IMG/VR virus record: IMGVR_UViG_3300021255_000054
From: a virus
Taxonomy: Duplodnaviria; Caudoviricetes
Direction: 5' to 3' (one strand)
Length of the DNA stretch: 64,000 bases
How positions within the stretch are numbered: position 1 is the first letter of the stretch; each line of letters opens with the position of its first letter. Made by a program: the position numbers and the translations under genes. The notes beneath the pieces were generated by a model. It saw only the letters and a program-made list of their open reading frames with translations. It did not search any database and was not told the origin of the DNA. This document shows positions 3,790 to 63,324 of this stretch, piece by piece.

Positions 3790-3791
3790 TT

Positions 3792-4341: not shown

Positions 4342-4510
4342 AATGCGGTGGCGGAAGAGGTAAACGCTGCGTCGTGAGACTACGGTAGTTACTTAATTCA
4401 TGGCCGAGATTGAAAAAGATCACTGACAGCCACTAATAGATAGGAATATTAGTAGAGATGGAGAGCGAAAAAACGTATGTCATGTAAGGTGCAAATCCTT
4501 GCCCGCATTT
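4342..4510 (+). ncRNA. tRNA-like RNA with ~110-nt insert replacing the anticodon arm (copy A)
   Basis: AATGCGG/CCGCATT acceptor; TGGCGGAAGAGGTAAACGC D region; CATGTAAGGTGCAAATCCTTGC T arm; paralog at 50308. Confidence 0.6.
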
Positions 4511-4512
4511 AT

Positions 4513-4669
4513 AGTCCCTTAGCGTAATGGTAGCGCAACGGACTTGTATGGGTCGTCTAGGTTGGAAGGCCGGCTCGGTGTATTAGAATACACAGATGAG
4601 AAGAAGTGAGTTCGATCCTCACCCCATGCATTGACTCCGTATGTGATGGTCCGATTCCATCAGGGACTG
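4513..4669 (+). tRNA. tRNA-Gln(TTG) interrupted in the anticodon loop by an 86-nt nested tRNA-like insert
   Basis: AGTCCCT/AGGGACT acceptor, GCGT/GCGC D arm, ACGGA/TCCGT anticodon stem; loop CT|TTGAC split by 4545-4630. Confidence 0.8.
4545..4630 (+). ncRNA. nested tRNA-like element (putative intron)
   Basis: TGTATGGG/CCCATGCA acceptor, GTCT-AGGTTGGA-AGGC D arm, GTGAG-TTCGATC-CTCAC T arm, irregular anticodon arm. Confidence 0.75.
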
Positions 4670-4696
4670 CGAATATTTAATAAAGAGATTAGACGT

Positions 4697-4945
4697 ATGA
4701 TTTTACACGGAAAAGAAATTACAGTACAAGTCGATAATATAGAACCATTCATTAATGAAAAATATGTAGGTTTTAAAATTTTATGGAGTGGTGATATTGG
4801 CTTTGGAGAATATACTATTTATAGGAAAGTTAATGAAAATAAATGGTATGTTGATGATGAATATATGGAAAATCCAAAAAATGATAGAACTTTTTTAAAA
4901 TTATTATGCGAAAATTTTATAAAACAGCTTGAGGAAATTGAATGA
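4697..4945 (+). CDS. hypothetical protein
   Basis: ORF; true start downstream of tRNA-Gln. Confidence 0.6.
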   Translation: MILHGKEITVQVDNIEPFINEKYVGFKILWSGDIGFGEYTIYRKVNENKWYVDDEYMENPKNDRTFLKLLCENFIKQLEEIE

Positions 4946-5385
4946 CATTATATACTTCTTATTTTGCTCAATTAAGAAATTTTCCACCTAATCTCGTAGG
5001 GCTCTCAACCGCAGTTTGGGAGCCCAAATGGCTTTAGCCCGGTAAAGACAAGAATGGAGCTATATGGCTTCCCATTCCTCCATTAAAGCCCGGAAAATCT
5101 TGTGATGGGCTATGCAATGGAAAATGTAATCCTAAGCATCCGCAGGATTGCTCTTTCTTAAAAGAGTATCGTAAACAATTAGATCAAATTAATTTTGAAG
5201 ACTTCTTACGTCAGCTATTAGAATTACGAGATAAAATTCGTGCTGGCGAACATTTAGATGATGTTGATTTTGCGCTATTAGTATATGAAGTTCCACAAAA
5301 TCAATGTAGTGAACGTGTCGTAATTCAATAGTGGTTTAAAGATCATGGAATGGAAATTGAAGAATGGCAGAAACTGAAATCTTGA
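4942..5385 (+). CDS. DUF488-like protein (2 TAG read as Gln)
   Basis: MTLYTSYFAQ ... LLVYE-x-C-x-R pattern; open only with TAG readthrough. Confidence 0.65.
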
Positions 5386-19561: not shown

Positions 19562-19631
19562 TAGAATTACATATTTTTATGGGGAAGAGCCATTCTAAGG
19601 AATGGCTTATTTTATTGGAGGTGATATAATA

Positions 19632-25634: not shown

Positions 25635-26860
25635 ATATAACACATTGGGCGGATACTTCCGCAGTTTTACATTGGAAAGGACTAGATGATTGTGATAAGA
25701 TTGGTATTAGCCCTATAACTGTATCTGAGCTTGAACATATTAAAACTTCTAAAGAAGATGATAAAATTAAATTTACTGCGCGAGAAGCTATTCGCGCAAT
25801 TTTAAATACTAGTCATTTTGAGACTATATTAGTAGATAATCATAAGATAGATAAGATGCTTAAAAAATATGAATTTTTAAGCGATATTAATGATCATAGA
25901 ATTTTATGTGCGGCTGAATTAACTGCTATTCAGCAAGGACAAGAAATTATATTTTTAACTTGTGATGCTACTCAATATTTATTTGCATTACAGATGCCGC
26001 ATCTATTAGCCGCATATAGTGGTAATGATTCATTAGATGAAGAAGAATGGGCTGGTTGGGAAAAATATACTCCTTCTGAAGAACAGCTAAATATGTTATA
26101 TACTAGTCCTAATATTAATATATTAGGTTGTAAAACTAATGAATTCGCGCGTATATATGAAGGCAATGAATTAAAAGATATTTTATTCTGGACTGGAAAT
26201 GAATATCGACCATTAAAATATAAAGAAATCCATAATGACTTTCTTGGTAAATCTGTACGTCCATTAAATATTGAACAAAAAATGACTTTTGATTTATTAC
26301 AAAATCCTAATATTCCTGTTAAATTATTGACAGGAGTACCTGGGTCTGGAAAAGATTATTTAATGTTTTTACACGCTTGGGACTTAGTACAACGAGGTAA
26401 GAAAGATAAGATTATTTATATTCGTAATCTAGTACCATTTAAAGATGCACCTGAAATTGGTTTCTTGGAAGGTTCCTTACAAAAGAAAATTGAATGGGGC
26501 CTTGGTCCATTAACTAGTATTTTAGGTGAAGATGGCTTACAGATGGCACAACAGACAGGACAAATTGAAGCCGTTAATTTAGGTTTCATTCGTGGCTGTA
26601 GCTGGGATAATACAATTTTATATGTATCTGAAGGGCAAAATATTACCGGAGGTGGATATAAATTATTAGTAAGTCGTTGTGGTAAAAATAGTGAGCTATG
26701 GATTAACGGTGATACATTACAAACTGATGGTAAGAAGTTTGAAAGTAATAATGGTATTGAAAGATTAAATAAAGCACTAGCAGGAAATAAACTATTTGGT
26801 ACTGTAAAATTATTAAAAACAGAAAGATCTGAAGTAGCTGAGCTAGCAAGTCAGATTTAA
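25631..26860 (+). CDS. phoH: PhoH family ATPase with N-terminal PIN domain
   Basis: DTS..EL..NDHRIL..TCD PIN; GVPGSGKD, IRGCS, EGQN, SRCG, GD..Q. Confidence 0.88.
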   Translation: MNITHWADTSAVLHWKGLDDCDKIGISPITVSELEHIKTSKEDDKIKFTAREAIRAILNTSHFETILVDNHKIDKMLKKYEFLSDINDHRILCAAELTAIQQGQEIIFLTCDATQYLFALQMPHLLAAYSGNDSLDEEEWAGWEKYTPSEEQLNMLYTSPNINILGCKTNEFARIYEGNELKDILFWTGNEYRPLKYKEIHNDFLGKSVRPLNIEQKMTFDLLQNPNIPVKLLTGVPGSGKDYLMFLHAWDLVQRGKKDKIIYIRNLVPFKDAPEIGFLEGSLQKKIEWGLGPLTSILGEDGLQMAQQTGQIEAVNLGFIRGCSWDNTILYVSEGQNITGGGYKLLVSRCGKNSELWINGDTLQTDGKKFESNNGIERLNKALAGNKLFGTVKLLKTERSEVAELASQI

Positions 26861-26877
26861 TTTAAGAGGTGAAATAA

Positions 26878-27975
26878 ATGCATATTATTTCAAAATAGGG
26901 TAATATGGATAATGTATTAACCTATGAACATATTTGCGATACTATTGCTGATATGAATAATATTGAAAAAAAATATATTACTTTGGGCTCTACTTGTATT
27001 GTGCTTTCTGGCTCAGCTAATGCATTAGAAGCTTATATGGCAGATTCAAATAAAGAATGGCATGAATTATTAGTATCCGGTAGTGAAACTGGTGGCAATA
27101 GTGGTATTAATACTGCTGTTTTAAAAACACTTCTCGCGCCAACTCGTGTGTCATCCTTAGAGCCATCTAAATTATTATCTGGAAATATAATAGAAGCTAT
27201 TGGAACTCCAACTTATGTAGAAGATATATCATAGTATGCCAATTATGGACTAACTAATACTGGCTGGTATGTTTTTAGCCGCATTGCCGCGCCAGAAAAT
27301 ACTATTGTTAGTGCTTCTACTACAATTACCGGTGCAGATGGATATATACTTACATCTGGCACTGATCATATTGATATTGCAATTCGTTTTGATGTCGCGG
27401 CAACTTCAAAAACAATAACCATTAATTGGGGTTCTGAAGAAGAAACTTTTATTTTTAAAGCTACTGACTTAGCAATTAATAATTTAGACTACCGCGTTAC
27501 TTTCTATGTATATGATGTAGATGACTACCTAACATGGGAATATGGCCTAACTACTGATACTACTTTTGTCGAAGATAAAACATACTATACACTTTCTGAT
27601 GGCGAGTATATCGCAGCCGAAGTAACTGTAGGTGATGAAGTACCGGAAAATACTTACTATAATCATACTAAAGTAATCTTCTCCGGCCTTACACCAAATA
27701 TTACATATAAATGTAATACAATTATTGACTGCCCAATGGAATTTATTCTGCCTGCCGTTGATAATGATACGCATGGATGCTGGTTTGAAATAAGATGCCG
27801 TCATAATGGCTCTTACAGTATGACCCTAACGCCGCCTGATGACACTGTAAAAATTGCTACTGAACATACTCAAGCCGAAACTAAGGGTCTAAACATGATT
27901 AATTTACATTACACTAATGTTTGCGGCGTTAAACTATGGCGCTTTATGAATACACATTCTACTATTCCAGCATAA
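26878..27975 (+). CDS. putative virion/tail-associated protein (2 TAG)
   Basis: GAGGTG RBS; one frame joins track ORFs 26905 and 27736. Confidence 0.65.
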
Positions 27976-27989
27976 GGAAGTGACAATTA

Positions 27990-28355
27990 ATGACTTGGAC
28001 ATATGAACGACTAAAGGAAGATGGCACTCTTGAATATTTGCCAATTAATGATACAGACGGCTCCATCACTGGAAAAATTATTTTAGGTGTCAAACAATGG
28101 TTTGATGAAAATCCAAATGAATATCGGGCACGTGGATGGATTAAGCATATTACACATACGAATGAAGAAATAAAAGAAATTGTAGGAGACTACAATCCTC
28201 AGACTCAATATATTACTACTACACAAAAAATGATAGATGACTATACAATAGAAGATACATACAATATTGGTACTAAGAGCGAGGAAATGCTATTGTTTGA
28301 GGACATGGCTAATACTCTAGGTATCACTGGCGGCTTTATTGTTGGAGGTATATAA
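27990..28355 (+). CDS. hypothetical protein
   Basis: ORF in the same operon. Confidence 0.65.
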   Translation: MTWTYERLKEDGTLEYLPINDTDGSITGKIILGVKQWFDENPNEYRARGWIKHITHTNEEIKEIVGDYNPQTQYITTTQKMIDDYTIEDTYNIGTKSEEMLLFEDMANTLGITGGFIVGGI

Positions 28356-28356
28356 T

Positions 28357-28527
28357 ATGACACGAGAAATAGATATGATGGCACATATTTAGGCGGAAAA
28401 AGAAAAGGAAATTGACCGCGCACTAAATGTATAGCCTCTTAATTTAAATGCAGAAAGTAACACTTTGGCCGCGGGCAAGCGCTTCACTTTTGATATTATA
28501 GACACTCCCGTAGATCCATTACGATAA
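28357..28527 (+). CDS. small hypothetical protein (2 TAG)
   Basis: GGAGG RBS; fills the gap with readthrough. Confidence 0.5.
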
Positions 28528-28539
28528 GGAGGAATAACT

Positions 28540-29013
28540 ATGTTTAACATTACACCAGTAGTTTCTCCTCATCCATCTGATTGCGGCGCTACTTGTCTAA
28601 AAATGCTATTATCCTACTATAATACTGAAGCTGACTTAACTGCATTAACTAAGGAATGTAATACCACGATAGTTGGGTGCAGCGCAAAAGACTTACTTGT
28701 AGTTGGTCGTAATCATGGTCTTGATATGCAGGCTTATAAAATGGACGCGGCCGAAGTCGTGCGTTAGGACCGTCCGAGTATCGTATGGTGGAAACATAAC
28801 CATTTCGTTATATGCTGCGGTCACGACGTTGAAGACAAAGTAGTAATTATCAACCCTGACCTAGGACAATACCGCATGACTTTTGGCACATTTGAAAGCT
28901 TCTACTCCGATATCGCTATCTTCAATGGCGAACCAGCAGATATTGTAGAATCTACAGATGCATCTTCTGCTGATTACATTGAAGCACTTCAGATGTTGGG
29001 GGTGGGAGTATGA
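28540..29013 (+). CDS. C39-like cysteine peptidase (1 TAG)
   Basis: SDCGATCL before the TAG; WW..NHFV and INPD after it. Confidence 0.8.
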
Positions 29014-29411
29014 CACGAGATGAGCTCATTGCGGCCGTCCGCGCGCGAATCGCACAAATGAATACTATACTTACTACCTTAACAGACGAAACCGCATTAG
29101 AAAGTGCAGTACTTTTCCCAGTATGGCACTAGGGTGAAGCTTATGAAGTTGGTGCACGAATACGTTATAATGATAAATTATATCGTGTAGTACAGGCACA
29201 TACTTCTCAACTAGGATGGGAACCTGATATTACACCTGCTTTATTTACTGAAATAACAATGCCAGGTACTATTGCTGAATGGAAACAGCCAACTGGTGCA
29301 CAAGATGCTTACAATACAGGAGACAGAGTAACATACAATGAGCAGACTTGGGAGTCTACAGTTGATAATAATGTATGGCAACCCGGCGTATATGGCTGGA
29401 TAGCTATCTAA
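29010..29411 (+). CDS. CBM5/12 (ChtBD3-type) carbohydrate-binding protein (1 TAG)
   Basis: W..G..Y..G..IRYN..LY.V.QAHTSQ..WEP and WKQPTGAQDAY..GDRV..N..W repeats. Confidence 0.85.
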
Positions 29412-29417
29412 ATTTAT

Positions 29418-29471
29418 GGGCGCGAAAGCGCCCTCTTTTTTATTTGACTTTTTTTAAATTTGCTGTATAAT
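29418..29471 (+). promoter_or_regulatory. terminator plus sigmaA promoter of the NAD operon
   Basis: GGGCGC-GAAA-GCGCCC and T run, then TTGACT-N16-TATAAT. Confidence 0.75.
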
Positions 29472-29497
29472 TATTATAGAAAAAGGAGGATTAAAAA

Positions 29498-30010
29498 ATG
29501 AAATATCTAATTGTTATTGATGCACAAGAAGATTTTACACGTGGCGCCCTTAGAAATGAGGAAGCAATCGCGGCGATCCCTAATATTCAAAAATTAATTG
29601 AAAAGGCGCGCGCAGAAGGGTTTTACCTTATTGCTACTCAAGACACTCATCATGAAGAAACTTATATGACTAGTCAAGAAGGTAGAAATCTTCCTGTTCC
29701 CCATTGTATTGCAACCACTCCTGGTTGGAAAATTTGTCATGAGCTAACAGATTTCAATTGTTATATTGCCAAGCCAACATTCGGCTATACAAAATGGGAT
29801 AATCGTCTAACTGCTCCAGAGGAAATTTGGCTTTGTGGTTTTTGTACTGATATTTGTGTATCTGCAAATTTTCAGATATTAAAGGCACAGTTTCCTGAAG
29901 TCCCAATTAAAGTATTCGCAGATTGCTGCGCTGGAGTAACACCAGAATTACATGAAGCCGCGCTAAAAGTAATGCAGTCTTGTCAAGCAACGATTGTGAA
30001 AGGAGTATAA
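29498..30010 (+). CDS. pncA: nicotinamidase / isochorismatase family
   Basis: IDAQEDF, TQDTH, PHC, KPTFG, GFCTDICV; adjacent to pncB. Confidence 0.88.
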   Translation: MKYLIVIDAQEDFTRGALRNEEAIAAIPNIQKLIEKARAEGFYLIATQDTHHEETYMTSQEGRNLPVPHCIATTPGWKICHELTDFNCYIAKPTFGYTKWDNRLTAPEEIWLCGFCTDICVSANFQILKAQFPEVPIKVFADCCAGVTPELHEAALKVMQSCQATIVKGV

Positions 30011-48367: not shown

Positions 48368-49261
48368 ATGAAGAGTATTAAAGTATAGGCAGAAAACAAA
48401 ATCAATCTAGTTGGTAAATTACTTGATGCAACTTTTGGTGATGGTAAGCTATCCGATGGACGTCATTATGAGCGGGCTACTGTAACAGTTCGTGTAACTC
48501 AGACTTATGGTGGTAAGACTGAAACAAGTGAAATTCCGGTTGGAATGTTCGCAACTGATTTCACTTCTACTGGTAAGCCTAATCCCGCGATGAAGAGTAT
48601 TCACGATCTAAAGTTAATGAATACTGCTCAGAATGTTGGCATTGATGCTGCCGCAAATGTACGGTTTAGTGGTATTTCTCTTCAGGAGAATAATTTCGTA
48701 TCTCGTACTGGTCAGCTTATTAATGGCTGGCAGCTACGCGGTAGCTTCGTAAGTGAAGCGAAGGTTTCTGATGTTGGGTCTTTTGCTGTAGAAATATTCA
48801 TTATGGATATGCATGATGAAGTAGATAACAATGGTGATCCTACAGGACGTTTAGTTCTTCGTGGCGGTATTGTACAGTACGATGGACGTCTTGATGTTGT
48901 AAACTTTATTGTTGAAGCTCCCGATGCAGTAGAATATATTTCTCAGCATTGGAATACTCAGGATACAGTAGTTGTAAAAGGACGTATTCGTGTGACCTCT
49001 GAGGAACAGGAAGTTGCTTCTAGTGGTTGGGGTGAAGAAGTTCCTGAGACCACAACTCGTTATGTGCGCGAACTAATTGTTACAACTGGTCTAGATCCTA
49101 AAGAAGAAGATTTTGCTTATGATCCTACAGAGATCAAGAAGGCATTTAATGAACGTAAGGCCGCAATTGAGCAGATGCAGGAAAATGCTCGTGCTCATGC
49201 TACAAAAGGAACAACAGCAAATGCTCCTTCTACCGCGGCAAATAAGTACAGTTGGGAGTAA
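48368..49261 (+). CDS. ssb: phage single-stranded DNA-binding protein (1 TAG)
   Basis: MKSIKV(Q)AENKINLVG; two OB-like halves, aromatic/acidic end; precedes AAA_24. Confidence 0.7.
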
Positions 49262-49304
49262 GGCATAAGCCTTACTTTCCTTTTCTGTATGAGAGGTGAT
49301 TTAA

Positions 49305-50303
49305 ATGGCGGATATTGATATTTTTTCTCTGGAGCCTTCCAAGATTTCAAGAGATCTTAAGGGAAAATTCTTGCTAATCTACGGTCAGCCAAAGACAGGT
49401 AAATCTACTTTTGGTAGCCAGCTTCCACGCGCTTTGTTTATGAACTTTGAACAAGGTACTAACGCGCTTGCTGGTATTCGTAGCGCTCCTATTCTACGTT
49501 GGACTGATGCTAAGAAAGTCTTAACTCAGCTACGTAAGCCACAGGCAAAAGAGATGTATGATAGTATTGTTGTTGATACTGCTTCAATCGCTTGGCAACT
49601 ATGTGAAAAGTATATTTGCCAGCGTGAAAATGTAGATAGTATTCGAGATGTGCCTTGGGGCCAAGGTTGGAATATGCTAAAGACTGAGTTCTCAGAATTC
49701 TGGCGTGAAATTACACTACTTGGTTTTGGTATTCTTTTTATTGCGCATAGTAAGGATAAGCCAACAGAAATGCGCGATGAGGATGGGAATGCAATTACTG
49801 CTGTATGTCCTGATCTTCCAAATCAAGCTTATACTATCATTAACTCAATTGTTGATATTATTGGATATTTACAGGTTCAGATGAATCCCGACGGAACTTC
49901 TGAACGTTATCTATATACTCGTTCTACTCCGACAGTATTTGCAGGTAGTCGTTATCAGTATCTTGCTCCAAAGATTAAATTTGGATATCAAGAATTGGTA
50001 GATGCTATTGGAGATGCTATTGATAAGGCAGTAGAACTTGATGGTGCACAAGTTACTGATCATACTGAAATCGCGCAGATTAAGGACAGACCTTTCCCAG
50101 AGGTAATGACTGAAGCGCGTAATGTATGGAGTAGCTATCTTGATAGCGCTAAGAATGATGAAGAGAAAGATCAGCATTTAATGATTATGAAGGATATTAT
50201 TAAAAAGGTCTTTGGATCTGAGGAATTTAAACTCAGCCAAGCAGTGCCTTCTCAATCTTCACTTGTTGAATACTTTATTGATGAAGTAAAGCAGTTAATG
50301 TAA
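49305..50303 (+). CDS. AAA_24 / Sak4-like ATPase
   Basis: YGQPKTGKST, IVVDT, FIAH, VDIIGY. Confidence 0.85.
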   Translation: MADIDIFSLEPSKISRDLKGKFLLIYGQPKTGKSTFGSQLPRALFMNFEQGTNALAGIRSAPILRWTDAKKVLTQLRKPQAKEMYDSIVVDTASIAWQLCEKYICQRENVDSIRDVPWGQGWNMLKTEFSEFWREITLLGFGILFIAHSKDKPTEMRDEDGNAITAVCPDLPNQAYTIINSIVDIIGYLQVQMNPDGTSERYLYTRSTPTVFAGSRYQYLAPKIKFGYQELVDAIGDAIDKAVELDGAQVTDHTEIAQIKDRPFPEVMTEARNVWSSYLDSAKNDEEKDQHLMIMKDIIKKVFGSEEFKLSQAVPSQSSLVEYFIDEVKQLM

Positions 50304-50307
50304 TATA

Positions 50308-50442
50308 AATATAGTGGCGGAATAGGTAGACGCTACACAATGGTGTGAGAGTATGGCGACCTATGTGCAAAGTAGAACGTGCCAGAGCGATTCGAAGAGA
50401 TATAGCCGAAACCATGTAAGGTGCAAATCCTTACCTATATTT
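50308..50442 (+). ncRNA. tRNA-like RNA with ~80-nt insert (copy B)
   Basis: AATATAG/CTATATT; TGGCGGAATAGGTAGACGC; CATGTAAGGTGCAAATCCTTAC; followed by terminator AGAGCC-GTAA-GGCTCT and T run. Confidence 0.6.
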
Positions 50443-50527
50443 TAGAGCCGTAAGGCTCTTTTTTATTTGACAAATTTTAGAATTATGGTATAATATATAT
50501 AGAATGAAATGTAAAGGAGAGTGGAAT

Positions 50528-51016
50528 ATGAAAATCACTCGAAAGTGTTTTGGATGTAAGGAAGACTTCCGTAAAGAAGAATTAGTAGAATATTCTTCAC
50601 CGTCAGGAAAAACTTCAAATTGGTATTGTCCAAAATGTTTAGCAGAAAAGCAGTCGCGCGAAAAGTTTATGAATAAGATATGTATGATATTTGGCATTAA
50701 AGCTCCCGGGCCACTTATCTGGACGCAGAGAAAGCGGTTAAAGGCTGAATATGGGTATACTGATGAATCTATTGTTGATTGTCTTGAATATCTATACAAA
50801 GTAGAACATTATAAAATTTTAAAAGATTCATTAGGATTGGTGGCACCCTGGTCAATGGAAAAAATGCGTGAATGGAAAAAGAATGAAGAAGCTCGCGCGA
50901 GTAGTATTGCCGCCGCGATTGCAAATACTCCAATGAAAGAATATGTTGTACCAATTAAAGAAAATGTATCTAAGAAAAAGGAAATAAATCTAGATGACGG
51001 TTTGTTTGATGATTAA
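50528..51016 (+). CDS. Zn-binding protein upstream of the helicase (possible loader)
   Basis: CxxC..CxxC; position matches the SPbeta-type replication module. Confidence 0.6.
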   Translation: MKITRKCFGCKEDFRKEELVEYSSPSGKTSNWYCPKCLAEKQSREKFMNKICMIFGIKAPGPLIWTQRKRLKAEYGYTDESIVDCLEYLYKVEHYKILKDSLGLVAPWSMEKMREWKKNEEARASSIAAAIANTPMKEYVVPIKENVSKKKEINLDDGLFDD

Positions 51017-51028
51017 GGAGGATTGGAA

Positions 51029-52603
51029 ATGACTCTATCCGATATGTCTGCTTATAAGCAAATTATCGGTTGCTTAATATACAAACCTCTTTTATTTTTG
51101 GAATATCCTGAACTACAAGTTACAGATTTTGATTATAGACCTGCAAAGGTTATATTTAATACAATTTATAAATTATATCTTGCTGGCGCGAAAGAATTAT
51201 CTCCGGTTGAAATAGACCAAGAAATTGAACAAAATGGCGGTTTAGCCTTACAGGAGTATCGCAATGGTGGTTTGGATTTTCTTAAAACTTCATATGAGAT
51301 TGCTCAATTAAGCAACTTTGATATGTATTATAATAGAATAAAGAAATGTGCATTATTAAGAAAATTACAGCAAGCAAAATATGATATTAGTGAATTTTAT
51401 TTAGAAGATACCGATCCAGCAAATGAAGCAAAGTTAAAACAGAAATTAGAAAATGCAACATTAGAAGATATCTTAAATGCGGTTGAAAAGAATTATTCTG
51501 AGATTAGAAATGCTTTTCTTAATGGCGGCAGAACGAAAGGTGATCCAGCAGAAGGAATTTTTCAGTTAATTGATGACTTATAGAAGTCGCCAAGTATTGG
51601 GCCAAGCTTAGAAGGAAAAATATTTAGTACAGTATGCAGAGGGGCAAGAGATGGATGTTTCTTCTTAAAAAGTGCTAGTACTTCATGTGGTAAAACACGT
51701 ACCAGTGTATTTGATGCTTGCCATTTAGCTTATCCAATTAGATGGTCCGCGACGAAGCACGCATTTATTGAAGAACTTCAACCTGATGAAGAGCCACGTA
51801 TTCCGCGTAAAGTATTATTTATTGTAACTGAAATGGATAAAGAAGAACTTCAAACTATGATGCTTGCATATTTGTCTGGAGTAGACGAAGACCATATCTT
51901 AACTGGATTATATGAAAGGGATGAATTAAAAAGAGTAAAAACCGCCGCAAAAATTATTGAAAAATATAGTGGTTATTTTATTATTGAAGAGATTAGTGAG
52001 CCGAATTTACAGAATGTTGAAGCAACTATACGTAAGTATGCTACAGTAGATAATGTAAAATATATCTTTTTTGATTATATTCATACAACTGCGAGTCTAG
52101 TGGCACAATTCAGTAAGAACGGACTTAGAGAAGATGTTGTACTTATGCTTCTTGCGAATCAGTTAAAAGAGCTTGCAAAAACATATAATGTATTTATCTT
52201 CTCTGCCACACAAGTAAATTCATTTGCAATGGGTGATGAAGAAATGGGATTTAAAGATGAAAAAAGTATTCGTGGTTCAAAAGCTGTTGCAGATAAATGT
52301 GATATGGGTTATGTAATGACTCGCATATCTGAAAAAGGATGGAATAGTGTTTTACCAGTGTTAAAGATTGCAGCAAGAGAAGGAATTATTGACCCATCTT
52401 TCTTAGAAAATAAACCAACTCATATTTTAGATATTTATAAAATGCGGCGTGGCCGCTATAAAATGATTCGTATTTGGACTCGTATTCATTTAGGAACAGG
52501 AGAGCGAGAAGATTTATTTATTACAAGTGCAGATAATCAACCATTAAATGAGCCATTAGATTTATTTTCAAGTGCCTCAGAAAGAGTGATTGAAATAGAA
52601 TGA
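51029..52603 (+). CDS. DnaB-like replicative helicase (1 TAG at 51581)
   Basis: SASTSCGKT, TEM, FFDYI, ATQVN, IRGSK, KMRRG; halves in frame. Confidence 0.9.
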
Positions 52604-53721
52604 TTGATACTTTACAAGGATTAGATCCAGAATTAGAATTTTATAATATATCATTACAAGATATTGTAAATTCAATAACACTTAAAGATGTAGAAACATT
52701 TTTACGAAGTCTTGGTGTAGAACAAATTGCTGTATATGAAGATAAAGGGTATTTGGTATGTCCAACAATTTGTCATAATCCATTAGATGAAGCCGAATCA
52801 ATGAAGTTATATTGGTATCAAAATAATAAGATATTTAGATGTTACACTGAATGTAATGAAGCAATGTCTATTTTTACTCTTTATCAAAGAGTAATGGATA
52901 TTAATTATCATGAAGTAAGCTTTGAAGAAGCAGTTGATTATGTTAAGAAATGTATCGCGCATTTAGAAATTAATACAGAAGAACGTAAGAAATCAGAACT
53001 TGACTTAGAGAAATATCAATTTGATTCTTCCGTACCGATTTTAACTGAATATAAAAGTAATATTTTATCATACTTTACAAAAAAGTATCATCCATTATGG
53101 TTAAAAGATGGTATTACACGAAAGTCAATGGATAAATTTCATATAGGCTTTTCACTTGCACAAAATAAAATATCAATACCACACTTTGATATAAATGGTA
53201 GGCTGGTAGGCATTCGCGGGCGAGCTATTAATGAAGATGAAGCCGCATTATTTGGAAAGTATAGACCAATACAAGTTGGCGATACTTTATATGCACATCC
53301 ACTACATTTTAACTTATATGGAATATATGAGCATCAGAATGGGATCCGCGCGCGAGGAAGCGCAATAATCGCTGAGGGTGAAAAATCAGTATTGCTTGAC
53401 GATGGGTATTATGGTGATTTAAGTAATACTGTAGCTTGCTGCGGTTCAAATATAAATAAGTATCAAATTAACTTATTAACAAATGTATTAGGAATTAATG
53501 AAATTACTATTGCATTTGATAAAGAATATACAGATTGGCGCACAGAGCAAGCGCGAAAATATAGAGAAAAAATTGAAAGTATTTGTAGAAAATATAGCAG
53601 TCAAGCTATTTTCTATTATATATGGGATATAAATAATTTATTAAATGAAAAAGATTCACCTTTTGATAAGGGAAAAGAAGTATTTGAAGAATTATATAAA
53701 CATAGAATTCGGGTGAGATAA
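52600..53721 (+). CDS. DNA primase
   Basis: TICHN..CYTEC Zn finger; IRGR, AEGEKS, AFDKE TOPRIM, KDSP. Confidence 0.9.
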   Translation: MIDTLQGLDPELEFYNISLQDIVNSITLKDVETFLRSLGVEQIAVYEDKGYLVCPTICHNPLDEAESMKLYWYQNNKIFRCYTECNEAMSIFTLYQRVMDINYHEVSFEEAVDYVKKCIAHLEINTEERKKSELDLEKYQFDSSVPILTEYKSNILSYFTKKYHPLWLKDGITRKSMDKFHIGFSLAQNKISIPHFDINGRLVGIRGRAINEDEAALFGKYRPIQVGDTLYAHPLHFNLYGIYEHQNGIRARGSAIIAEGEKSVLLDDGYYGDLSNTVACCGSNINKYQINLLTNVLGINEITIAFDKEYTDWRTEQARKYREKIESICRKYSSQAIFYYIWDINNLLNEKDSPFDKGKEVFEELYKHRIRVR

Positions 53722-53886
53722 TGGAATTTGATTTAAAATTAGAAGAAAATAAAACATGCTGGTTATATAAATATAATTGTCCATGCAGAACTGGAGGATG
53801 TTATGGCTTACCAGATGATGGATGTCCAGTATATAGATGGTTTAAAGAAGTAATTAATTATCAAGAACGGGGAGCAATGGTGTGTA

Positions 53887-55659
53887 ATGAAGTATCGATT
53901 AAGGTGTAATTATACGACAGACGCAGAAGAAGCATTAATAGATATTCTAAAAGATCGTGGAGTTAAAAATGTTCATGAGTTTATGAATCCATCAAAGTCA
54001 TGTGAATTAAATCCATATGACTTAGATAATATTGATAAAGCCGCGGAACAATACCTATATCATCTGCGCAAAGATAGTAATATTTTATTTATTGTAGATT
54101 GCGATTGTGATGGATTTACAAGTTCTAGTATTCTATGGCTATATACAAAGCATATATTTCCAGAAGCTAAGCTTGAATTTACTGTCCATACTCATAAACA
54201 GCACGGCTTAGATGATAAGATAGATTGGATTGAAGATGAATCTAAATGGGATTTAGTTATGGTACCTGATGCCGGAAGTTATGATGTAAATGAACATTTT
54301 AAACTTGGACAGCTAGGTATGGATTGTATTGTACTAGATCATCATATGTAGGAATATGATAAAAATGGAAATCCAATTACTTCAACAGCACCTAATACAA
54401 TCGTTGTAAATAATCAGTTATCACCTAATTATGATAATAAATCATTATGTGGCGCCGGTATTGTTTATAAATTTTGTGAAGTATTAGATGATAAATTAGG
54501 TATTAGTCAAGCACATAATTATATTGACTTAGCTGCTTTAGGTGAAATCGCTGATGTTATGGATAGAACTGATTCTGAAACTAATTATATTATGATGGAA
54601 GGACTAAAAAATATCCATAATGAGGGCTTTAAGACTTTGCTCGCAGCGCAAGCTTTTTCCTTAAAAGAAAAGTGCGTACCTCCATATACAGGGCTAACTC
54701 CTATTGATATCGCATTCTATATCGCGCCTTTAATTAATGCAATTACACGTGTAGGGTCTATAGCAGAAAAAGAAGCAATGTTTTATTGTTTTATTGAACC
54801 TATGAAGCCTCTACAAAGCACCAAGCGTGGCGCAAAAGCCGGAGAAACTGAGTATGCCGCCGAACAAACTGCGCGCGTAGGAAAGAATGCTAAGTCCCGT
54901 CAAGATAGATTAAAGGAACAAGCTTTAGGAATTATTGATTTCAAAATTCAAAAAGATGGTTTAGCGGATAATAACATTATTCTAGTTGAATTAGATGCTA
55001 TGGATAATGTACCACAAGAATTAACTGGTTTAGTTGCGATGAATATTGTATCTAAATATCATAAGCCAGTTATGATTGGTCGCCGAAATGATAATGATGA
55101 GATTCAGGGAAGCATTCGTTCTGATGGGAATTTCGCCGGGCTACCAAGCTTTAAGAAATTTTTAGAGGACAGCGGTTTAACTACTTATACTGCTGGGCAC
55201 GATAATGCCGCTGGTTGGGGATTAAGTGGTAATAAAGTAGAATCTTTAATTAAGTACGCTAATACTCATCTTAAAGCAGAAGATTTTGAAAATTGTTATC
55301 TTGTAGATTATATCTTAAAAGGTGAAGGACATAATGATGCCCTATTGCGCGAACTAGCTTCGCATCCAGAATATTTCGGGAATCATATTGACGAAATTAA
55401 ATTAGTAATTGAAGATATTCCACTAATGAATATTATGCCTATGGGCGCAAATAAAGATAGTATGAAAATTTCATATAATGGAATTGATTATGTGCGCTTT
55501 AAAGATGAAGATTTCGTAGAAGAAGTAATGCAGAATCGTACTAAAAAACTTACTGTTTATGGGCGTGTAAATTTAAATACATTTAATGGTAAAACTAGTA
55601 TTCAAGTATTTATTGATGATTATGAATTAAAAGCAGATGAGCATAAATATGACTTTTAA
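53887..55659 (+). CDS. recJ: RecJ-like ssDNA exonuclease (1 TAG at 54349)
   Basis: DCDCDG, PDAG, LDHH, CGAG, ADVM, GSIR, AGHDNAAG; halves in frame. Confidence 0.9.
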
Positions 55660-55773
55660 AAAAAATTGATTGACAAAAAATGAAATTTGTAGTATAATTG
55701 ATATAGATAAAGAAGGAGCAGTGAATATGATAAAAAATGTGCGTAATGAAGCGCGAAAGGAGGTGGTGCCTGT

Positions 55774-58700
55774 ATGAAGATGACTTACCCTGGAAGTCTT
55801 CATAATTAGGAGCCATACACATTATAGTAATGAAACCCTTCGTGACTGTATCAATCGAGTAGAAGATTTGATTGATCTGGCAATTAACTTAGGTCATGAA
55901 TGTGTTGCAATCACTGACCATGAAACGATATCAAGTTATATTAAGGCAGAAAAGTATTATAAGAAGATTAAAGAAACGCATCCAGACTTTAAATTAATTC
56001 GTGGTAATGAGATTTATCTTACTCGTAATGGTTTAACGGCGAAGAATTTTGATAGGACAAAAGATAGGTATTTTCACTTTATTCTTCTTGCAAAAGACAA
56101 GATTGGATATAAGCAAATTTGTCAATTATCAACAAGAGCATGGCACCGTTCATATATGAGTCGGCGCCAGCGTAGACGTCCAACTTATTATCAAGATTTA
56201 AAAGATATTGTAAAGCCAGATAAAGGGCACTTGATTGCGTCAAGTGCCTGTTTGGGTTCTCAGTTGGATAGATTCTTACTTCAATATATGGATACTGGTG
56301 ATGAAGAATTTTATGAAACGGCAAAACGTTGGTGTTTATATATTGAAGATATTTTTGGTAAAGGAAATTTCTATTTGGAGATGCAACCTTCAAATGGAAA
56401 AGAACAAATCTTTGTTAATAAACAATTATTAAGAATTAGTAAAGAACTTGGTATTAAATATATTATAACAACCGATAGTCATTATGGGCGGCCGGAAGAA
56501 GCTAAAATTCATGAAGCATTTCTTAATTCACAAGATGGTGATAGAGAAGTTAAATCATTCTATGCGACAACGTATATGATGAGTGATGAAGAGATTCATA
56601 GTTTCTTTCCATATCTATCTGAAGAAGAAATTGAAGCTGCATATAGCGCGATTAGAGAGATTAAAGATAAGTGTGAAGATTTTAGTGTATTGAAACCATT
56701 GAAGATTCCAAGTTTACCTTGGCGTGATTTTCCAATTTGTCAGCTCGATGAATTTAAATATTATTATAAACAAATGCCAGCTATCAAAGAATTTGCACAT
56801 TCATCATATTATGCTGATAATCAATTAGTATGGGCACTACTTGATGGCATTAAGCGGCATCCAGATCTTCAAAATGAAAAAGCGTATAAAGCATTAAATG
56901 AATGTCTTGAAATGACTTGGGAATCTTCACAGGTTAATAAAGCGCAGTGGTCAGCATACTTCTTAAATCTACAAAAGATTATAGATGAATGTTGGAATGC
57001 GGGAACAATTGTTTTACCAGCGCGCGGATCAGGTATGGGATTCGTGCTTCTATATGCGCTTGATATTATTCAAATTAATTGTCTACGTGAAAAGACGAAG
57101 ACGTATCCTTGGAGGTTTCTTAATCCTGCTCGTGTATCAGTACTTGATATTGATGTAGATATTGAAGGCGTCCGTAGAGCACAAGTATTAGAGCATTTAA
57201 GAAGAACTTATGGTGAAAATCGAGTATCTAATGTTGCAACATTCAAAACAGAAAAGTCAAAGTCGGCAATTCAAACTGCATGTAGAGGATTGGGTATAGA
57301 TGTAGATGAAGCATCTTATATTTCAAATTTAATTCAAGCAGAACGTGGCCAAGTATATACATTAAAGCAAACTTATTATGGCGATGAAGATAATGGTATC
57401 GCACCGAATCAAGCATTTATTACAGAAGTAAATAAGTATCCAGGCTTATGGGAAGTCGCTCAGAGAATTGAAGGACTTATCTGTGGGCAAGGTATTCACG
57501 CTGGCGGCGTAGTATTTACAGATGAAGATTTTACGGAATCAAGTGCTTTAATGCGTGCGCCCGATGGCACGATTATTACACAATTTGAATTACATGACCT
57601 TGAAGATGTTTCAATGATTAAGATGGACTTATTGAGCGTTGAAGCTGCGGATAAGATTCATACTTGCCTTGATTTACTAGTTGAACAAGGCTATATTAAA
57701 GAGGGAAAAAATCTTAGAGAAACATATGAAGATGCACTTGGTGTATATAAAATAAATCGTGATGATAAGAAAATGTGGGATATGGTACAAAATCATGAAA
57801 TTGTGTCATTATTCTAGATGGAACAACAGAGCGGTATTCGTGGTATCTCATTAACACATCCACGAAGTGTCGATGAATTAGCAGTTCTTAATTCGGTTAT
57901 TCGTCTAATGGCAACTGAAAAAGGTGCGGAAAGTCCATTGGATAAGTATGCGCGCTTTAGGGAACGGCCGCAGGATTGGGATAGAGAAATGATTCAGATG
58001 GGTTTGACTGATGAAGAACGTCAGATTATGCATCGTGAATTAGATATTTCTGATGGTATGTCCATTACGCAAGAGCAATTTATGCAACTTGTACAATTAC
58101 CAGAATGCGGCGGCTGGGATCTACAGTTTGCAGATAAGTTAAGAAAGTCAATAGCAAAGAAGAATCCTAAAGAGTATGATGCCTTAACAAAACAATTCTT
58201 TGATAATGTAAAAGAAAAAGGATTAAGTGAAAAGTTCTGTAATTATGTATGGAATATTGAGATTGCGTTAAGCCGTGGATATGGATTTAACGCAGCACAT
58301 ACGTATTCATATTCCATTGTAGCATTACAAGAAATGAACCTTGCACGATTCTTCCCAATTATCTTCTGGAATACAGCAAACCTTATTGTAGATAGTGGCG
58401 GTATTCAAACAGTTGAATACGACGAAGATGGAATAGCTTCGATAGTAGTTGAAGCCGAACCTGATGAGGATGCAGAAGAAGAAGAGGAAGAACAAGAAGA
58501 ATGGGAAGAAGAAAATGAAATAACTGAAGACGAGAAGGAAGAGAAGAAAAAAGAAAAAACCAAAAATATTGATTATGGTAAGATTGCATCTGCGATTGGA
58601 AGATTCAGTACTTATGGAATTACAGTATCGCCGCCGAATGTAAATGATTCATCTTATACTTTTACTCCGGTAGTAGATAAGAATGAAATTTTATATGGAT

Positions 58701-59755
58701 TACGTGGTATTACAAGATTATCTACTTCAATTATTAAAGACATTATTGAGAAGCGTCCATTCACTTCTATTGATGACTTTTTAAATCGTGTTAAATTAAA
58801 TAAGGTTCAAATGACAAATCTAATTAAGTGTGGCGCCTTTGATGAATTAGTAGGTTTGCCGCGCGAAAAAATAATGTCAGATTATATTGGACGTATCGCA
58901 GATAAGAAGCAGAGATTAACATTACAGAATATGCAAATGCTTATCAATTATGATTTAATTCCAGATGAAATGACATATTATGGTAAGTTATTTATGTTTA
59001 ATAAGTTCTTAAAGACTTGTAAACAAGATGATGATTATATGTTAAATGATGCAGCAATTAACTTTATTGCTGAACATTTTAGTGCAGATTATATTAGTAA
59101 TGGTATGTCTATTAAACAAAATGTTTGGGATAATCTATATAAAAAAGGTATGGAACCAATGCGAGTATATTTAAAAGCGCATCAAGTAGAAATGTTAAAA
59201 GTATTAAATGATACTTTATATAATGAGATGGCAAATAAATATGCGTCTGGCAGTGTATCGCACTGGGAAATGGAATCAGTATCATTTTATAGTCATCCGC
59301 ATGAACTTGCCGAAGCTCAATATTTATATGATGATTTCTTTACATTACCAGAAGCGCCAGAAATTGATTATACTTTTACTGGTAGAGATGGTAATGAGAT
59401 AAGAGTATATAAGTTAAGAAAAATTATTGGAACTGTAATTGATAAAAATAAGATGAAAAATACAGTAACATTATTAACTCCGACAGGGGTAGTAAATGTT
59501 AAAGTATATAAAAATCAATTTGCAATGTTCGATAAACGATTATCTCAAAAAGGTGCAGATGGCCGCAAGCATGTGTTAGAAAATAGTTGGTTTTCACGTG
59601 GAACATTGTTAATGATTCAGGGAATTAGGCGTGAAAATGACTTCATTCCCAAGAAGCGGAAAGATAGTTTTTATCCTGTAATTTCTAAGATTACGGCAAT
59701 GCATGAAGATGGTACATTAGAATTTCAGACAGAAAGATTGGAGGTGGTAGAATGA
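55774..59755 (+). CDS. dnaE: DNA polymerase III alpha subunit (TAG at 57815; 7-nt gap at 55807-55813)
   Basis: PHP LHN/HTHYS, TDHE, RGSG, DIDVD, HAGG, KMDLL, F(Q)MEQ, YGFNAAH. Confidence 0.92.
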
Positions 59756-60846
59756 TAGGTTTAGTTGACCTTCAGCTATAGCAATGGAATAAGTAGTTGC
59801 TATGTCCTCCTAATCTTGAAATAATGAAAATTGCTAATTATTATCGTACAGAAGAGAATAAGTTTTGCCGCCTTATAAACTTAGATGAAACTGAACTTGA
59901 ATCATATGATAAGATTTATATATTCAGTGAATCTACAGCATATACTGAAGTACCTGAACATTTTAAGCGTGCTTCGAATGTCTTATATGGCGGTACTGCT
60001 TTTACTAATGATGTGTATGTACCTTTTGAAAATTCAATTATAGATTATACATTGCCGCATACTTTTATTTATAAAGAGTTTTTAAAAGAAAAGAATTTTG
60101 CAGGATTACCTATTAATGAGACATTAAATTTATTAGATAGTACATATTATAGATATCATGCGGGAGATAATATTCTCCCACTTCCGGTAATTCATAAAAG
60201 AAAGAAAGTGTATATCTATGATAATGACTTATTTCAACAAGATTGGCATCCTATTATTGATAAGATTCTTGCGCGCCAACCTTCATCAATTAATTTAATA
60301 CATCCTGCACGATATAACAAGATATCGGATTTTTTAGAAATACGAGAAAATAAAATAATTAGTCGTACTACTGATACTTACTTAGATTTGAATATTCCAC
60401 TTAATGAAACTTCAGTTTTAATGAAACATTATAAGACCAGATTATTGGCTACAATAACTAAAACTTCATAGGTATTTTTAACATTAGGTGGATCATTTTA
60501 TTATAGTACGGAATATTTTAAAGATTTAATTTATAAGTTAAAATTATTATATGCATTTTGGAGTAATAATATTCCAATTAAAATTAAGTATGAAATACCA
60601 AAAATTGGATGTTATAACCCATACAAAGATATATCTCAATTAATTGCTTCTTGGACGCAAGGAGAAACTAAAAATACAAAAACAATTTTGGAGCGCATTC
60701 CAAAAGATAAAAGTTTATCTAATCGGCGTCCTGAGCGCGAATAGGTAGAAGCAATTATTAAAAGACTTCCATCCGCAGAAACATTATTCCGTTAGACAGC
60801 AGAAACGGTTAAAAAAGGAGGAAACTGGTGTTATGGAAATAGATAA
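59752..60846 (+). CDS. hypothetical protein, N-terminus like phage radical-SAM-associated proteins (5 TAG)
   Basis: MIGLVD...PNLEIMKI..YY, GGT; open only with readthrough. Confidence 0.6.
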
Positions 60847-61039
60847 TATTAAAACAAAATATAGTGAGTTAAGCTCACAATTAAAACAAGCTTTAGCCAC
60901 TATGCAACGTAGTGATAGAGTATTTGTTATTAGAGATGAAATTAAGAGCTTACAAAATATGTGTCCGCATAGCAATGGTAATTATGATTTTTCTGATGCA
61001 GATTCTTGTCCATATTGCGGAAAAAAATTTAGGAAGTGA
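60833..61039 (+). CDS. small Zn-ribbon protein
   Basis: CPH..CPYCG. Confidence 0.65.
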   Translation: MEIDNIKTKYSELSSQLKQALATMQRSDRVFVIRDEIKSLQNMCPHSNGNYDFSDADSCPYCGKKFRK

Positions 61040-61044
61040 CATTA

Positions 61045-63324
61045 ATGGAATTGCTAATTAGAAAACGTACTGGCGAATTAGTACCATTTGATAAAGAAAA
61101 AATTCAAACAGCTATATGTAAAGCTTGGCATGATGTTTATCCTACTGAAACAGGAATGCCATCTTATTGTATAGAAATTGCTAATCTGATTGAATCAGTC
61201 GCAATTGAATTATCTGAACCTATGGATGTTGAAGATATTCAAGAGTTAGTTGAGGATTATTTAACAGATTATGATTTAAAGGTCGGAAAAGCATATATCA
61301 AGTATCGTTATAAGCACGGCGTGATGCGCGCAAATTCAACTGAATTTATTCGTGCTATTAGCGAAAAGCTTCGTGCTTCTAATGTACAAAATCAAAATGC
61401 AAATATAGATGAACATTCATTTGGCGGCAGAGTAGGAGAAGCTTCAGATGAAATGATGAAGCAATATGCATTAGATTATTGTATGTCTGATATGTCTAAG
61501 CAGAATCATTTAAATAATGAAATCTATATTCACGATTTAAGTGCATATGCAGTAGGAATGCATAATTGTTTAAGTATTCCATTTGATGATTTATTAGCTA
61601 AAGGATTTAATACAAGACAAACAGATGTACGTCCTGCTAATTCAATTAATACCGCGTTCCAGCTTGTAGCAGTTATATTTTAGCTTCAATCTTTAATGCA
61701 GTTTGGCGGCGTTAGTGCCACTCACTTAGATTGGACTATGGTGCCTTATGTGAGGAAGAGTTTTTACAAACATTATAAAGATGGATTGAAATACTTAGAA
61801 AATATCAATGAATTAAAAATAGTTGATGAAAATAACAATATAATTGATCTTAATACTATTGATTGGAACAGTAATATTATTGGCATAGAACATGCTAGAT
61901 TTGGCTCAGAAAAGGCATACAATTATGCAATGGAAATGACGGAACGCGAACTTCAGCAAGCGGTCGAGGGAATGTACCACAACCTTAATACACTTCAATC
62001 AAGAAGCGGGAATCAACTACCTTTCACGTCCATTAACTATGGCACCTGTACATTACCGGAAGGTCGTATGGTAATTAAAGCATTGTTAGAAGGTTCTATA
62101 AAGGGCGTAGGGAAGTATCATAAAACTCCTATATTCCCATGTGGTATTTTCCAACTTGGAAAGGGTATTAACCGCGCGCCCGGAGATCCAAACTATGACT
62201 TATATCAGCTTGCACTTGAATCTACTGCTAAACGTATTTATCCCAATTATGCTAATATTGATTGGTCTGGAAATGCAGGATACGATCCAAACGATCCAAC
62301 AACATATTTCAGCACAATGGGATGCCGTACAGCTAACGGCGCAGACATAAATGCAGAACCCGGTGTCAATCCACAACGTAAAGATGGCCGTGGCAATATT
62401 TGTCCAGTTACTATTATTATGCCAACGCTTGCAGCAGAAGTTAAAGAAGCCTATATTAATAAATATGGACTTGAAACCGCGCAAGAAGATGAAGCACATG
62501 TTGTAGATGCTTTTATTGGTTTATTAGATCAAAAAATTCATGAAGCAAAAGATATGCTAATTGAACGTTTCAATTGGATTTGCTCTCAATCTCCCGCATC
62601 CGCGAAGTTTATGTATGAAAATAATACAATGCTCGGCTATCATCCAGAAGAAGGAATCCGCTCAGCATTGAAGCACGGCACTATTGTTATTGGACAACTA
62701 GGACTTGCAGAAACACTTCAAATCTTAATTGGCTGTGACCATACAACTGAAAAGGGAATGGAGCTAGCTAAGAGAATTGAGCAGCTATTTAAAGATAGAT
62801 GTGCAGAGTTTAAAAAAGAATATAAGCTTAATTTCGGCGTCTATTATACTCCTGCTGAAAACCTTTGCTATACAGCAATGAAGAAGTTTAAAGCTAAGTA
62901 CGGTGAGATTGAAAATGTATCTGACCATGAATATTTTACAAATAGTATTCATGTACCAGTATGGCATGACATTTCAGTATTTGATAAAATTGATATTGAA
63001 AGTCAGTTAACTGGATATTCTAGCGCCGGATGTATTACATATGTAGAAGTTCCTTCTGGTGTAAAGAATAATATTCCCGCACTTGAAACCATTGTTAATT
63101 ATGCGATGGATCATGACATACCGTATTTCGCTTTGAACATACCGCTAGATATGTGTAATGATTGCGGCTATCAAGATGAAATTGGTGAAACCTGTCCTGA
63201 ATGTGGTAGTAAAAACATTTCAAGACTTAGACGCGTAACTGGATACCTTACTGGTTCCTATAAAGATGCTTTCAACTGGGGCAAGCAGAAAGAAGTTGAA
63301 GCAAGGGTTAAGCATATACACTAA
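61045..63324 (+). CDS. nrdD: anaerobic (class III) ribonucleotide reductase with ATP cone (1 TAG at 61681)
   Basis: ATP cone, YIHDL, HNC, AVIF(Q)LQS, MGCRT, TPAENL, YFTNS, RRVTGYL. Confidence 0.95.

Follow-up and report, generated by a model that had tools for sequence, protein, structure and literature searches.

How does a phage translate a replicative DNA polymerase whose reading frame breaks after only 11 codons? The question is raised by the dnaE gene in a 64,000-nucleotide (nt) stretch (the whole of which is hereafter called the window) of IMG/VR virus record IMGVR_UViG_3300021255_000054 (Duplodnaviria; Caudoviricetes), in which seven bases beginning with TAG lie inside the PHP H-x-H motif of the encoded polymerase. 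The explanation that we favour, and consider reasonably probable, is that these bases belong to a micro-bypass cassette borne by a homing endonuclease, in which peptidyl-tRNA-Asn hops from AAU at 55804 to AGC at 55811 and translation resumes at CAU 55814.

The interruption at the start of dnaE and its variants

The elements of the interruption lie in a row on the plus strand, which also bears the promoter and the mini-ORF described below. Downstream of a Shine–Dalgarno (SD) sequence (AAAGGAGGTG; 55756–55765), dnaE starts at ATG 55774 and runs for ATG plus ten codons (segment 1; 55774–55806; MKMTYPGSLHN), which supply the first His and the Asn of the PHP motif and end on AAT (55804–55806), the candidate take-off codon. 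The gap TAGGAGC (55807–55813) follows, made up of TAG (55807–55809) and GAGC, that is, a spacer G (55810) and the candidate landing triplet AGC (55811–55813). CAT 55814 then opens the frame HTHYSNETLRD, and taking out the 7 nt restores LHNHTHYS. The first-pass annotation had described this gap together with its ATG, its TAG and the resuming frame, and each element proved to be in place. The HTHYSNETLRD frame has a TGA at 55781 and no ATG, GTG or TTG ahead of TTG 55868; frame 0, if TAG is read through, stops at TAA 55828. Segment 2 (55814–59755) comprises 1,313 codons from CAT (His) to a TGA at 59755 and encodes a PolIII-alpha-like replicative polymerase that is complete by Pfam, with PF02811 (PHP), PF07733 (DNA_pol3_alpha), PF17657 (finger) and PF14579 (HHH_6) in order and all above cut-off. 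The PHP profile match begins at profile position 5 in this frame as against position 2 in an uninterrupted relative, indicating that the first residues of the domain sit in the 11-codon upstream piece.

The 7-base interruption is real, and not a chance or assembly feature. We scanned viral contigs with a protein guide, which yielded 80 loci (54–90% identical to the window's polymerase), and widened the gapped set by searching viral and metagenome contigs for DNA patterns; matches to an initial 15-nt pattern, too short to be specific, were mostly due to chance and were filtered by script. The junction of YPGSLHN with HT is continuous in 65 of the 80 protein-found loci, with one residue between both His residues in 65/65, and is interrupted at the same spot in 13 others. 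Comparison of relatives' dnaE 5′ ends, in line with the check proposed at the outset, showed the short gap recurring at the HN/HT junction: at least 39 distinct gapped 5′ ends with 18 gap types, from many independent metagenome assemblies, form a class that takes off from Asn. Every gap of this class opens with TAG straight after AAY and is 4, 7, 8, 10 or 11 nt long; the spacer is absent or reads G, GG, AG, TG, GGTG, GGTT, GGTTA or GGTTG; and the last triplet, always followed by CAY, is AAC or AAT (13 types), AGC (4 types: the window's TAGGAGC, TAGC, TAGGGAGC and TAGGGTGAGC) or GAC (1 type), all of which can pair with the anticodon GUU through Watson–Crick or G·U pairs.

Two more classes take off from the first or the second His codon, that is, one codon earlier or later, with TAG again next. 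In the CAT TAG class, a 12-nt gap that stays in frame lands on CAT and an 8-nt gap on CAA, and in the CAY TAG class, gaps of 5, 7 or 11 nt land on GAT or TAT; these landing triplets (CAT, CAA, TAT and GAT) are the same as the take-off codon or differ from it by one base. Across all classes (approximately 26 gap types), UAG lies directly 3′ of the take-off codon in every type and omission of the gap restores L-H-N-H-T in every case. The landing triplet is cognate (AAY or CAT) in 16 types and one base off in the rest, the window's AGC requiring a central G·U pair. Segment 1 of the gapped relatives keeps YPGSLHN with synonymous changes. Given that gap lengths fall in both non-zero frame classes, no single frameshift fits them, whereas a hop fits all. 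A hop of the T4 gene 60 type, with take-off at AAT beside UAG and landing on near-cognate AGC, had been put forward in the first-pass annotation; the relatives' varied gap lengths and held landing triplets now favour it over a +1 frameshift. The SD-like role that had been suggested for AGGAG within the gap was rejected, as this sequence is not conserved (other gaps have GGAAC, GGGAAC, AGAAT, TGAAT or C).

The gap is too short to hold a stem-loop, and a hairpin between the start region and the codons ahead of take-off is conserved instead. In the window, this hairpin (55763–55816; −15.4 kcal/mol for 51 nt, z = −3.3) has an inner stem that pairs UAUGAAGAU in the start codon region with GUCUUCAUA, which covers the pre-take-off codons and the first base of the take-off codon (start-region/pre-take-off helix, AUGAAGAU/GUCUUCAU), a middle stem CCUG/UAGG and an outer stem GUGGU/GCCAU, the latter involving the landing and resume codons and, as predicted by the fold, the 3′ part of the SD sequence as its 5′ arm. 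The hairpin of L012, a relative with a gapped dnaE, is stronger (−22 kcal/mol, z = −4.8). All gapped 5′ ends have a start region (U)AUGAAGA(YK) complementary to (AG)UCUUCAU(A) just before take-off, and the inner helix has 7–10 contiguous pairs in 35/35 gapped ends as against a median of 6, the chance level, in ungapped ends (helices were measured by script, because a MAFFT alignment of the 5′ ends placed the ATGAAGA block out of register in some rows). Outward, the helix extends in relatives through CCUR/UAGG and through pairing of the 3′ part of the SD sequence (GGUGRU) with the landing and resume codons. For the loci recovered by protein search only, mean folds were −18.5 kcal/mol for gapped and −9.7 kcal/mol for ungapped ends (Mann–Whitney, 7e-8). 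The class that takes off from the first His pairs AUGAAAACU with AGUUUACAU, which amounts to one compensatory G–C to A–U change and one new mismatch relative to the Asn class, and the window's change from AAC to AGC keeps both the helix (A–U to G·U) and a G·U pair with the Asn anticodon.

A homing-endonuclease cassette in a phage clade with in-frame TAG codons

The gap travels with an endonuclease gene. In L012, a 240-codon open reading frame (ORF) that ends on the dnaE start codon encodes a GIY-YIG domain above the Pfam cut-off and gives weak helix-turn-helix matches, and L104 has a 243-codon homologue that is likewise GIY-YIG by Pfam (PF01541, 42.5 and 30.3 bits; 240–243 amino acids, stop overlapping the dnaE start). 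Within the protein-found set, such a gene, whole or partial, abuts dnaE in 12/14 gapped and 0/65 ungapped loci (Fisher, 1.8e-12). Counting all gapped loci, duplicate records included, the endonuclease gene is whole in 31, partial in 7 and absent in 26, and is thus wholly or partly lost in 33/64. The window is one of these: it retains a 16-codon mini-ORF (MIKNVRNEARKEVVPV; 55727–55777) whose TGA overlaps the dnaE ATG and whose residues correspond to the last residues of the L012 endonuclease, NKNVRNEARKEVVPI. By tblastn, residues 224–240 of the L012 protein match window positions 55724–55774 with 82% identity, and the window keeps the first two endonuclease codons, ATG ATA, fused in frame to the last 14, behind the same block of promoter and ribosome-binding site that precedes the L012 gene. 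On these matches the mini-ORF is identified as the remnant of a GIY-YIG homing endonuclease gene after an in-frame deletion; the GIY-YIG domain itself is not present in the 16 codons. The homologous block contains a sigma-70-type promoter (TTGACA, 17-nt spacer, TATAAT; 55670–55698) that matches the consensus at 12/12 positions and that, as judged from the gene order in relatives, would drive both the endonuclease gene and dnaE there. The first-pass suggestion of a degenerate intron remnant thus holds to the extent that the gap is part of a mobile element; the element is not an intron but a GIY-YIG homing-endonuclease cassette, of which the window keeps 16 codons.

In L104, the endonuclease gene (2987–3718, minus strand) contains four in-frame TAG codons, which suggests a mobile element adapted to an amber-as-sense code, and two ORFs with DPPY and NPPF methyltransferase-type motifs (3826–5185, minus strand) lie between recJ and this gene. 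The spacer between recJ and dnaE ranges from approximately 80 nt to 4 kb among the loci L001–L274.

The distribution of the gap is that of a mobile insert. When the first 40 residues are left out of the DnaE tree, the gap state requires 13 changes for 14 gapped rows, the same as with shuffled labels. The body of the window's dnaE is 85–86% identical in DNA to the ungapped loci L001–L005 and 64–77% identical to gapped loci, and its 70-nt cassette end shows few differences from that of L009 and L012. Between L063, which has the endonuclease and a 12-nt insert, and the near-identical L054, which lacks both, homology sets in precisely at the gap, so that the landing triplet is the resident gene's own codon. 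Scattered presence, the mosaic window and this pair together form, on sequence comparison, the pattern of a homing element that moves horizontally. Enough time has seemingly passed for many lineages to shed the endonuclease and retain the gap.

Gapped alleles are seemingly in use. Two complete genomes with terminal repeats and one 96% complete genome (G003, G005 and G006) have no other dnaE, and nearly all gapped alleles that reach the end of the gene keep an open frame of approximately 1,300 codons; in L074, L078 and a few metagenome contigs, the frame instead ends at a large insertion of a kind also found in ungapped relatives. Pairwise ratios of nonsynonymous to synonymous substitution rates (dN/dS) between gapped alleles are 0.04–0.18, values that would fit function, although low dN/dS does not show selection after insertion, given that the cassette moves horizontally. 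The dnaE gene of many relatives (L078/G003, 26667–29700; L132/G006, 111376–114701; L019, L026, L044, L054, L066 and others) is interrupted again by insertions of approximately 0.9–1.2 kb after residues ~441–455, 560, 758, 786 and 834, beyond which the polymerase frame resumes. These are probably introns, inteins or more endonuclease insertions, and dnaE is a hot spot for mobile elements.

The codon that opens the gap has a second meaning in this clade. With TAG as sense, four products encoded within 48368–63324, namely RecJ (53887–55659), the DnaB-like helicase (51023–52603), DnaE and NrdD (61006–63324) align over their full lengths to their families with one or two TAG each, and several other window ORFs lengthen. 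In-frame stops in conserved genes of the clade number 95 TAG, 6 TAA and 5 TGA, TAG lying most often at conserved Gln columns, and no complete dnaE of the clade ends in TAG. The window's dnaE contains a single in-frame TAG in segment 2 (57815–57817), at the Gln of a conserved F-Q-M-E motif where L012 has Q; a full-length polymerase therefore requires that it be read as sense. Judging from these alignments, the clade reads TAG as Gln, and the cell's state would accordingly decide whether the UAG at the gap acts as a stop or as a sense codon with a poor supply of decoding tRNA. An unassigned ORF at 19602–21746 contains 10 TAG, and 59752–60846 contains 5.

No tRNA with a CUA anticodon was found when the window and five relatives' tRNA arrays were searched with ARAGORN and Rfam, and an intron-containing tRNA-Gln(UUG) was rejected as a suppressor after inspection by hand, because no splice register gives CUA. 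The window's own tRNA array (294–4631) runs off its start and contains 11 genes by ARAGORN at default and 15 at relaxed settings, which add Cys, Ser-CGA, Tyr and a UUA species; neither tRNA-Asn nor tRNA-Gln occurs in its visible part. The UUA species (3835–3906, plus strand) is a tRNA-like gene with a 7-nt anticodon loop, UUUUAGA, that would read UAA and perhaps UAG; it scores 43 bits against the Rfam tRNA model, is called by ARAGORN only at the relaxed threshold and has a poor acceptor stem, and may be a suppressor or a decayed tRNA. Positions 50308–50468 gave no tRNA by ARAGORN with introns allowed and no Rfam match at the gathering threshold. Relatives encode tRNA-Asn(GUU), the would-be hopping tRNA (L229, 12981–13052; L230, 3961–4103; L231, 6201–6274; intron-bearing in G003), and several other tRNA genes in their arrays carry insertions of 40–300 nt in the anticodon loop. 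Among cultured phages, a DNA search found nothing close and the best protein identity was 40% (Staphylococcus, Enterocloster and SPbeta-type phages), and there is therefore no cultured model; the genome collection offered no more than a 28% match to a Lachnospira metagenome-assembled genome.

How the gap may be crossed

In the hop that we favour, an intact cassette consists of a free-standing GIY-YIG homing endonuclease gene inserted between promoter and dnaE, a replacement dnaE start (SD, ATG AAG A.. and ..YPGSLHN) and UAG with 0–8 spacer bases, after which the resident gene follows, starting with its own Asn codon; an in-frame deletion that left the mini-ORF has removed the endonuclease from the window, which retains the gap. 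A ribosome would translate 11 codons until UAG enters the A site with peptidyl-tRNA-Asn (anticodon GUU) on AAU. The tRNA would then unpair, the mRNA slide by 7 nt and the tRNA re-pair with AGC (A–U, G·U and C–G), or, in most relatives, with AAC or AAU, and decoding would resume at CAU to give the canonical LHNHTHYS. An empty or slow A site would favour this event. The hop and its presumed efficiency are drawn from sequence comparison, and the joined protein is predicted on the same basis; its tryptic junction peptide would be MTYPGSLHNHTHYSNETLR, whereas a +1 shift would give ...LHNR and SHTHYSNETLR.

The hairpin would have two roles. As it can re-form only when the pre-take-off bases leave the ribosome, its folding may draw the mRNA onward, a role that has been suggested for the 5′ stem-loop in T4 gene 60. 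The hairpin would also sequester the SD sequence and AUG of dnaE; this, together with the overlap of stop and start codons, is consistent with dnaE translation being coupled to that of the endonuclease ORF or of what remains of it. At the DNA level, by analogy with MobA and gene 60, the insert most likely breaks an endonuclease target in the conserved CAT-AAY-CAY; carriers would thereby be spared self-cleavage, and ungapped alleles would be cut and converted.

Several observations weigh against this explanation. The way in which the cassette is joined to the resident gene accounts in part for the match of take-off and landing codons, which could reflect descent rather than selection for re-pairing; the variants AAT, AGC and GAC each differ from AAC by one of its three possible transitions, so that mutation bias alone favours them; the landing triplet is one base off in 10 of the approximately 26 types, the window included; and a GAT landing by tRNA-His would need a G–G mismatch. 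With a nascent chain of 11 residues and no stem-loop in the gap, two of the stimulators of gene 60 are missing. In most sequences the search patterns themselves fixed the 3′ arm of the hairpin, and the cassettes share ancestry, which makes the hairpin's conservation only partly independent evidence. UAG is read as Gln in the clade and is thus not plainly undecodable, so that hopping would have decoding as a competitor; moreover, the dnaE of the window would need a hop at UAG 55807 yet read-through at UAG 57815, the opposite requirement. In the first-His class, the 12-nt gap preserves the frame, and ordinary read-through could give LHQFIHNH and leave the motif unbroken.

A more ambitious version of the same idea is possible, although we hold it only tentatively: the cassettes would form a second, independently evolved family of endonuclease-borne bypass elements, with UAG hops of 4–12 nt driven by re-folding of the start-region hairpin, and the hop would double as a sensor, efficient amber suppression diverting ribosomes to the dead-end frame and ending polymerase synthesis late in infection.

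Of the alternatives to hopping, the best preserved, although an unlikely one, is a frameshift at UAG (+1 for gaps of 4, 7 or 10 nt, and +2 or −1 for gaps of 5, 8 or 11 nt) with translation of the rest of the gap, which would leave one to three extra residues between the His residues (LHNRSHTHYS in the window). As in prfB, +1 shifts are classically stimulated when a stop or slow codon occupies the A site; the shifted frame is free of stops in all gaps; and the 4-nt gap in AAT T AGC CAT is formally a plain +1 shift. Against these points stand the need for two different types of shift and the inability of tRNA-Asn to re-pair at +1 (AUU) or +2 (UUA). The last gap triplet, moreover, is held to AAY, AGC or GAC although the spacer varies, and frameshifting would place varied residues (S, RN, RS, GN, EN, VN, RVN or GLN) in a metal-binding H-x-H motif that has a single spacer residue in all 65 ungapped loci.

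Slightly more doubtful is the possibility that the cassette simply broke the 5′ end of dnaE, leaving either an internal start that omits the first PHP motif (TTG 55868 in the window, the ATG of HTMYS in some relatives) or a recently inactivated gene on a selfish element. Each gapped phage has very close ungapped relatives, so that the insertions may be recent, the low dN/dS is no proof of selection after insertion, and L009 and L012 have an ATG two codons past the resume codon. These considerations are offset by the status of the gapped gene as sole dnaE in three complete or near-complete genomes, by the exclusively synonymous changes in YPGSLHN of segment 1, and by the accumulation of endonuclease losses and of so many gap types while nearly every dnaE frame stayed open. 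No internal start or SD sequence is conserved, and TTG 55868 is an ordinary Leu codon of VEDLIDLA. In the 8-nt gaps, the resident frame has a TAA four codons ahead of the resume codon and no start codon, which excludes separate initiation there; internal initiation was rejected as a general solution on these grounds, no resident-frame start codon preceding the His.

That the 7 nt are cut out of or edited in the RNA, for instance through cleavage and ligation inside the hairpin, we regard as very improbable. The gap does lie in the 3′ arm of a stable hairpin, and the many intron-containing tRNA genes and dnaE insertions of relatives suggest that RNA processing is active in the clade; against this, the invariant UAG after a sense codon and the tRNA-compatible landing triplet would have no role, and we know of no bacterial or phage system that excises 4–12 nt from mRNA. 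A sequencing or assembly indel in the window contig, for which nothing speaks except the frame break itself, has a negligible chance of being correct and is refuted by the comparative data, the same architecture with conserved and co-varying features recurring in the at least 39 distinct sequences from many samples and assemblers.

Comparison with known bypass systems

The closest parallel is the T4 MobA and gene 60 bypass cassette (Huang 1988; Bonocora 2011; Manning & Atkins, bioRxiv 10.1101/2022.08.31.505936), in which the insert blocks self-cleavage and of which several phages keep the bypass after loss of the endonuclease; a recent survey termed this cassette unique (bioRxiv 10.1101/2022.08.31.505936). 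In both systems, a gap lies in an essential gene of DNA metabolism, UAG comes directly after the codon of take-off, the landing codon is the same as that codon or close to it, and pairing of upstream 5′ RNA is implicated. Gap and free-standing homing endonuclease travel as one, with scattered presence among close relatives, and some lineages drop the endonuclease and keep the gap, as the window does. The differences are equally marked. The T4 gap is 50 nt, whereas those described here are 4–12 nt with no internal stem-loop and a nascent chain of 11–15 residues; MobA is an HNH enzyme, whereas the endonuclease here is GIY-YIG with no sequence homology to it; and the T4 target is the Toprim domain of a topoisomerase whose gene is split in two, whereas here it is the PHP H-x-H motif at the very start of an unsplit dnaE. 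The 5′ arm of the hairpin is here the gene's own SD sequence and start codon, and the phage reads UAG as Gln.

Short gaps are also known from Streptomyces phage terminase genes, in which gaps of 7–10 nt are opened by a slow codon, a case backed by mass spectrometry in E. coli (PMC10732093). Like the gaps in dnaE, those of the phiHau3 type (10-nt gaps starting with UUA, and a 7-nt gap in a prophage; Smith 2013; Antonov et al. 2023, PMC10732093) are very short, frame-breaking inserts in a conserved motif of an essential phage gene, begin with a codon that is slow to decode and restore the protein when removed; 5′ structure and SD-like stimulators have been proposed. In contrast to the dnaE gaps, they are triggered by UUA, a rare sense codon associated with the bldA tRNA of the host, no endonuclease is linked to them and three genes are known, as against dozens of variants in a defined mobile context here. 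The byps of Magnusiomyces capitatus mitochondria (Lang 2014, cited in PMC10732093) resemble the present gaps, so far as that citing account describes them, in their many independent occurrences, matched take-off and landing codons, undecodable first gap codon and spread as mobile inserts; by the same account, they differ in being GC-rich hairpin inserts of 27–55 nt in many mitochondrial genes, without an endonuclease gene.

In prfB, which encodes RF2, a stop in the A site early in the ORF and a nearby SD-like sequence redirect the ribosome, as may happen in the window. The prfB event is a fixed +1 slip on CUU-U with re-pairing at an overlapping codon, whereas the displacement here varies from 4 to 12 nt.

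The window cassette is apparently a miniature, independent counterpart of the T4 gene 60 bypass, and what is new relative to known bypass systems is the endonuclease family, the target gene, the gap size, the stimulatory structure and the setting in an amber-recoded phage. Programmed bypassing has had one well-studied natural cassette, gene 60 and MobA, besides the mitochondrial byps and a few candidate short gaps. The clade described here supplies dozens of natural variants, with three take-off positions, gaps of 4–12 nt, cognate and near-cognate landing sites and presence or absence of the endonuclease, a series of the kind needed to work out the minimal rules of ribosome hopping. Gene callers will report such gapped dnaE genes as truncated or with a false internal start. 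As in T4, a homing endonuclease would have invaded a strictly conserved catalytic motif by bringing a translational fix along, and here the fix would sit in a phage in which the codon that sets off the hop has itself been reassigned.

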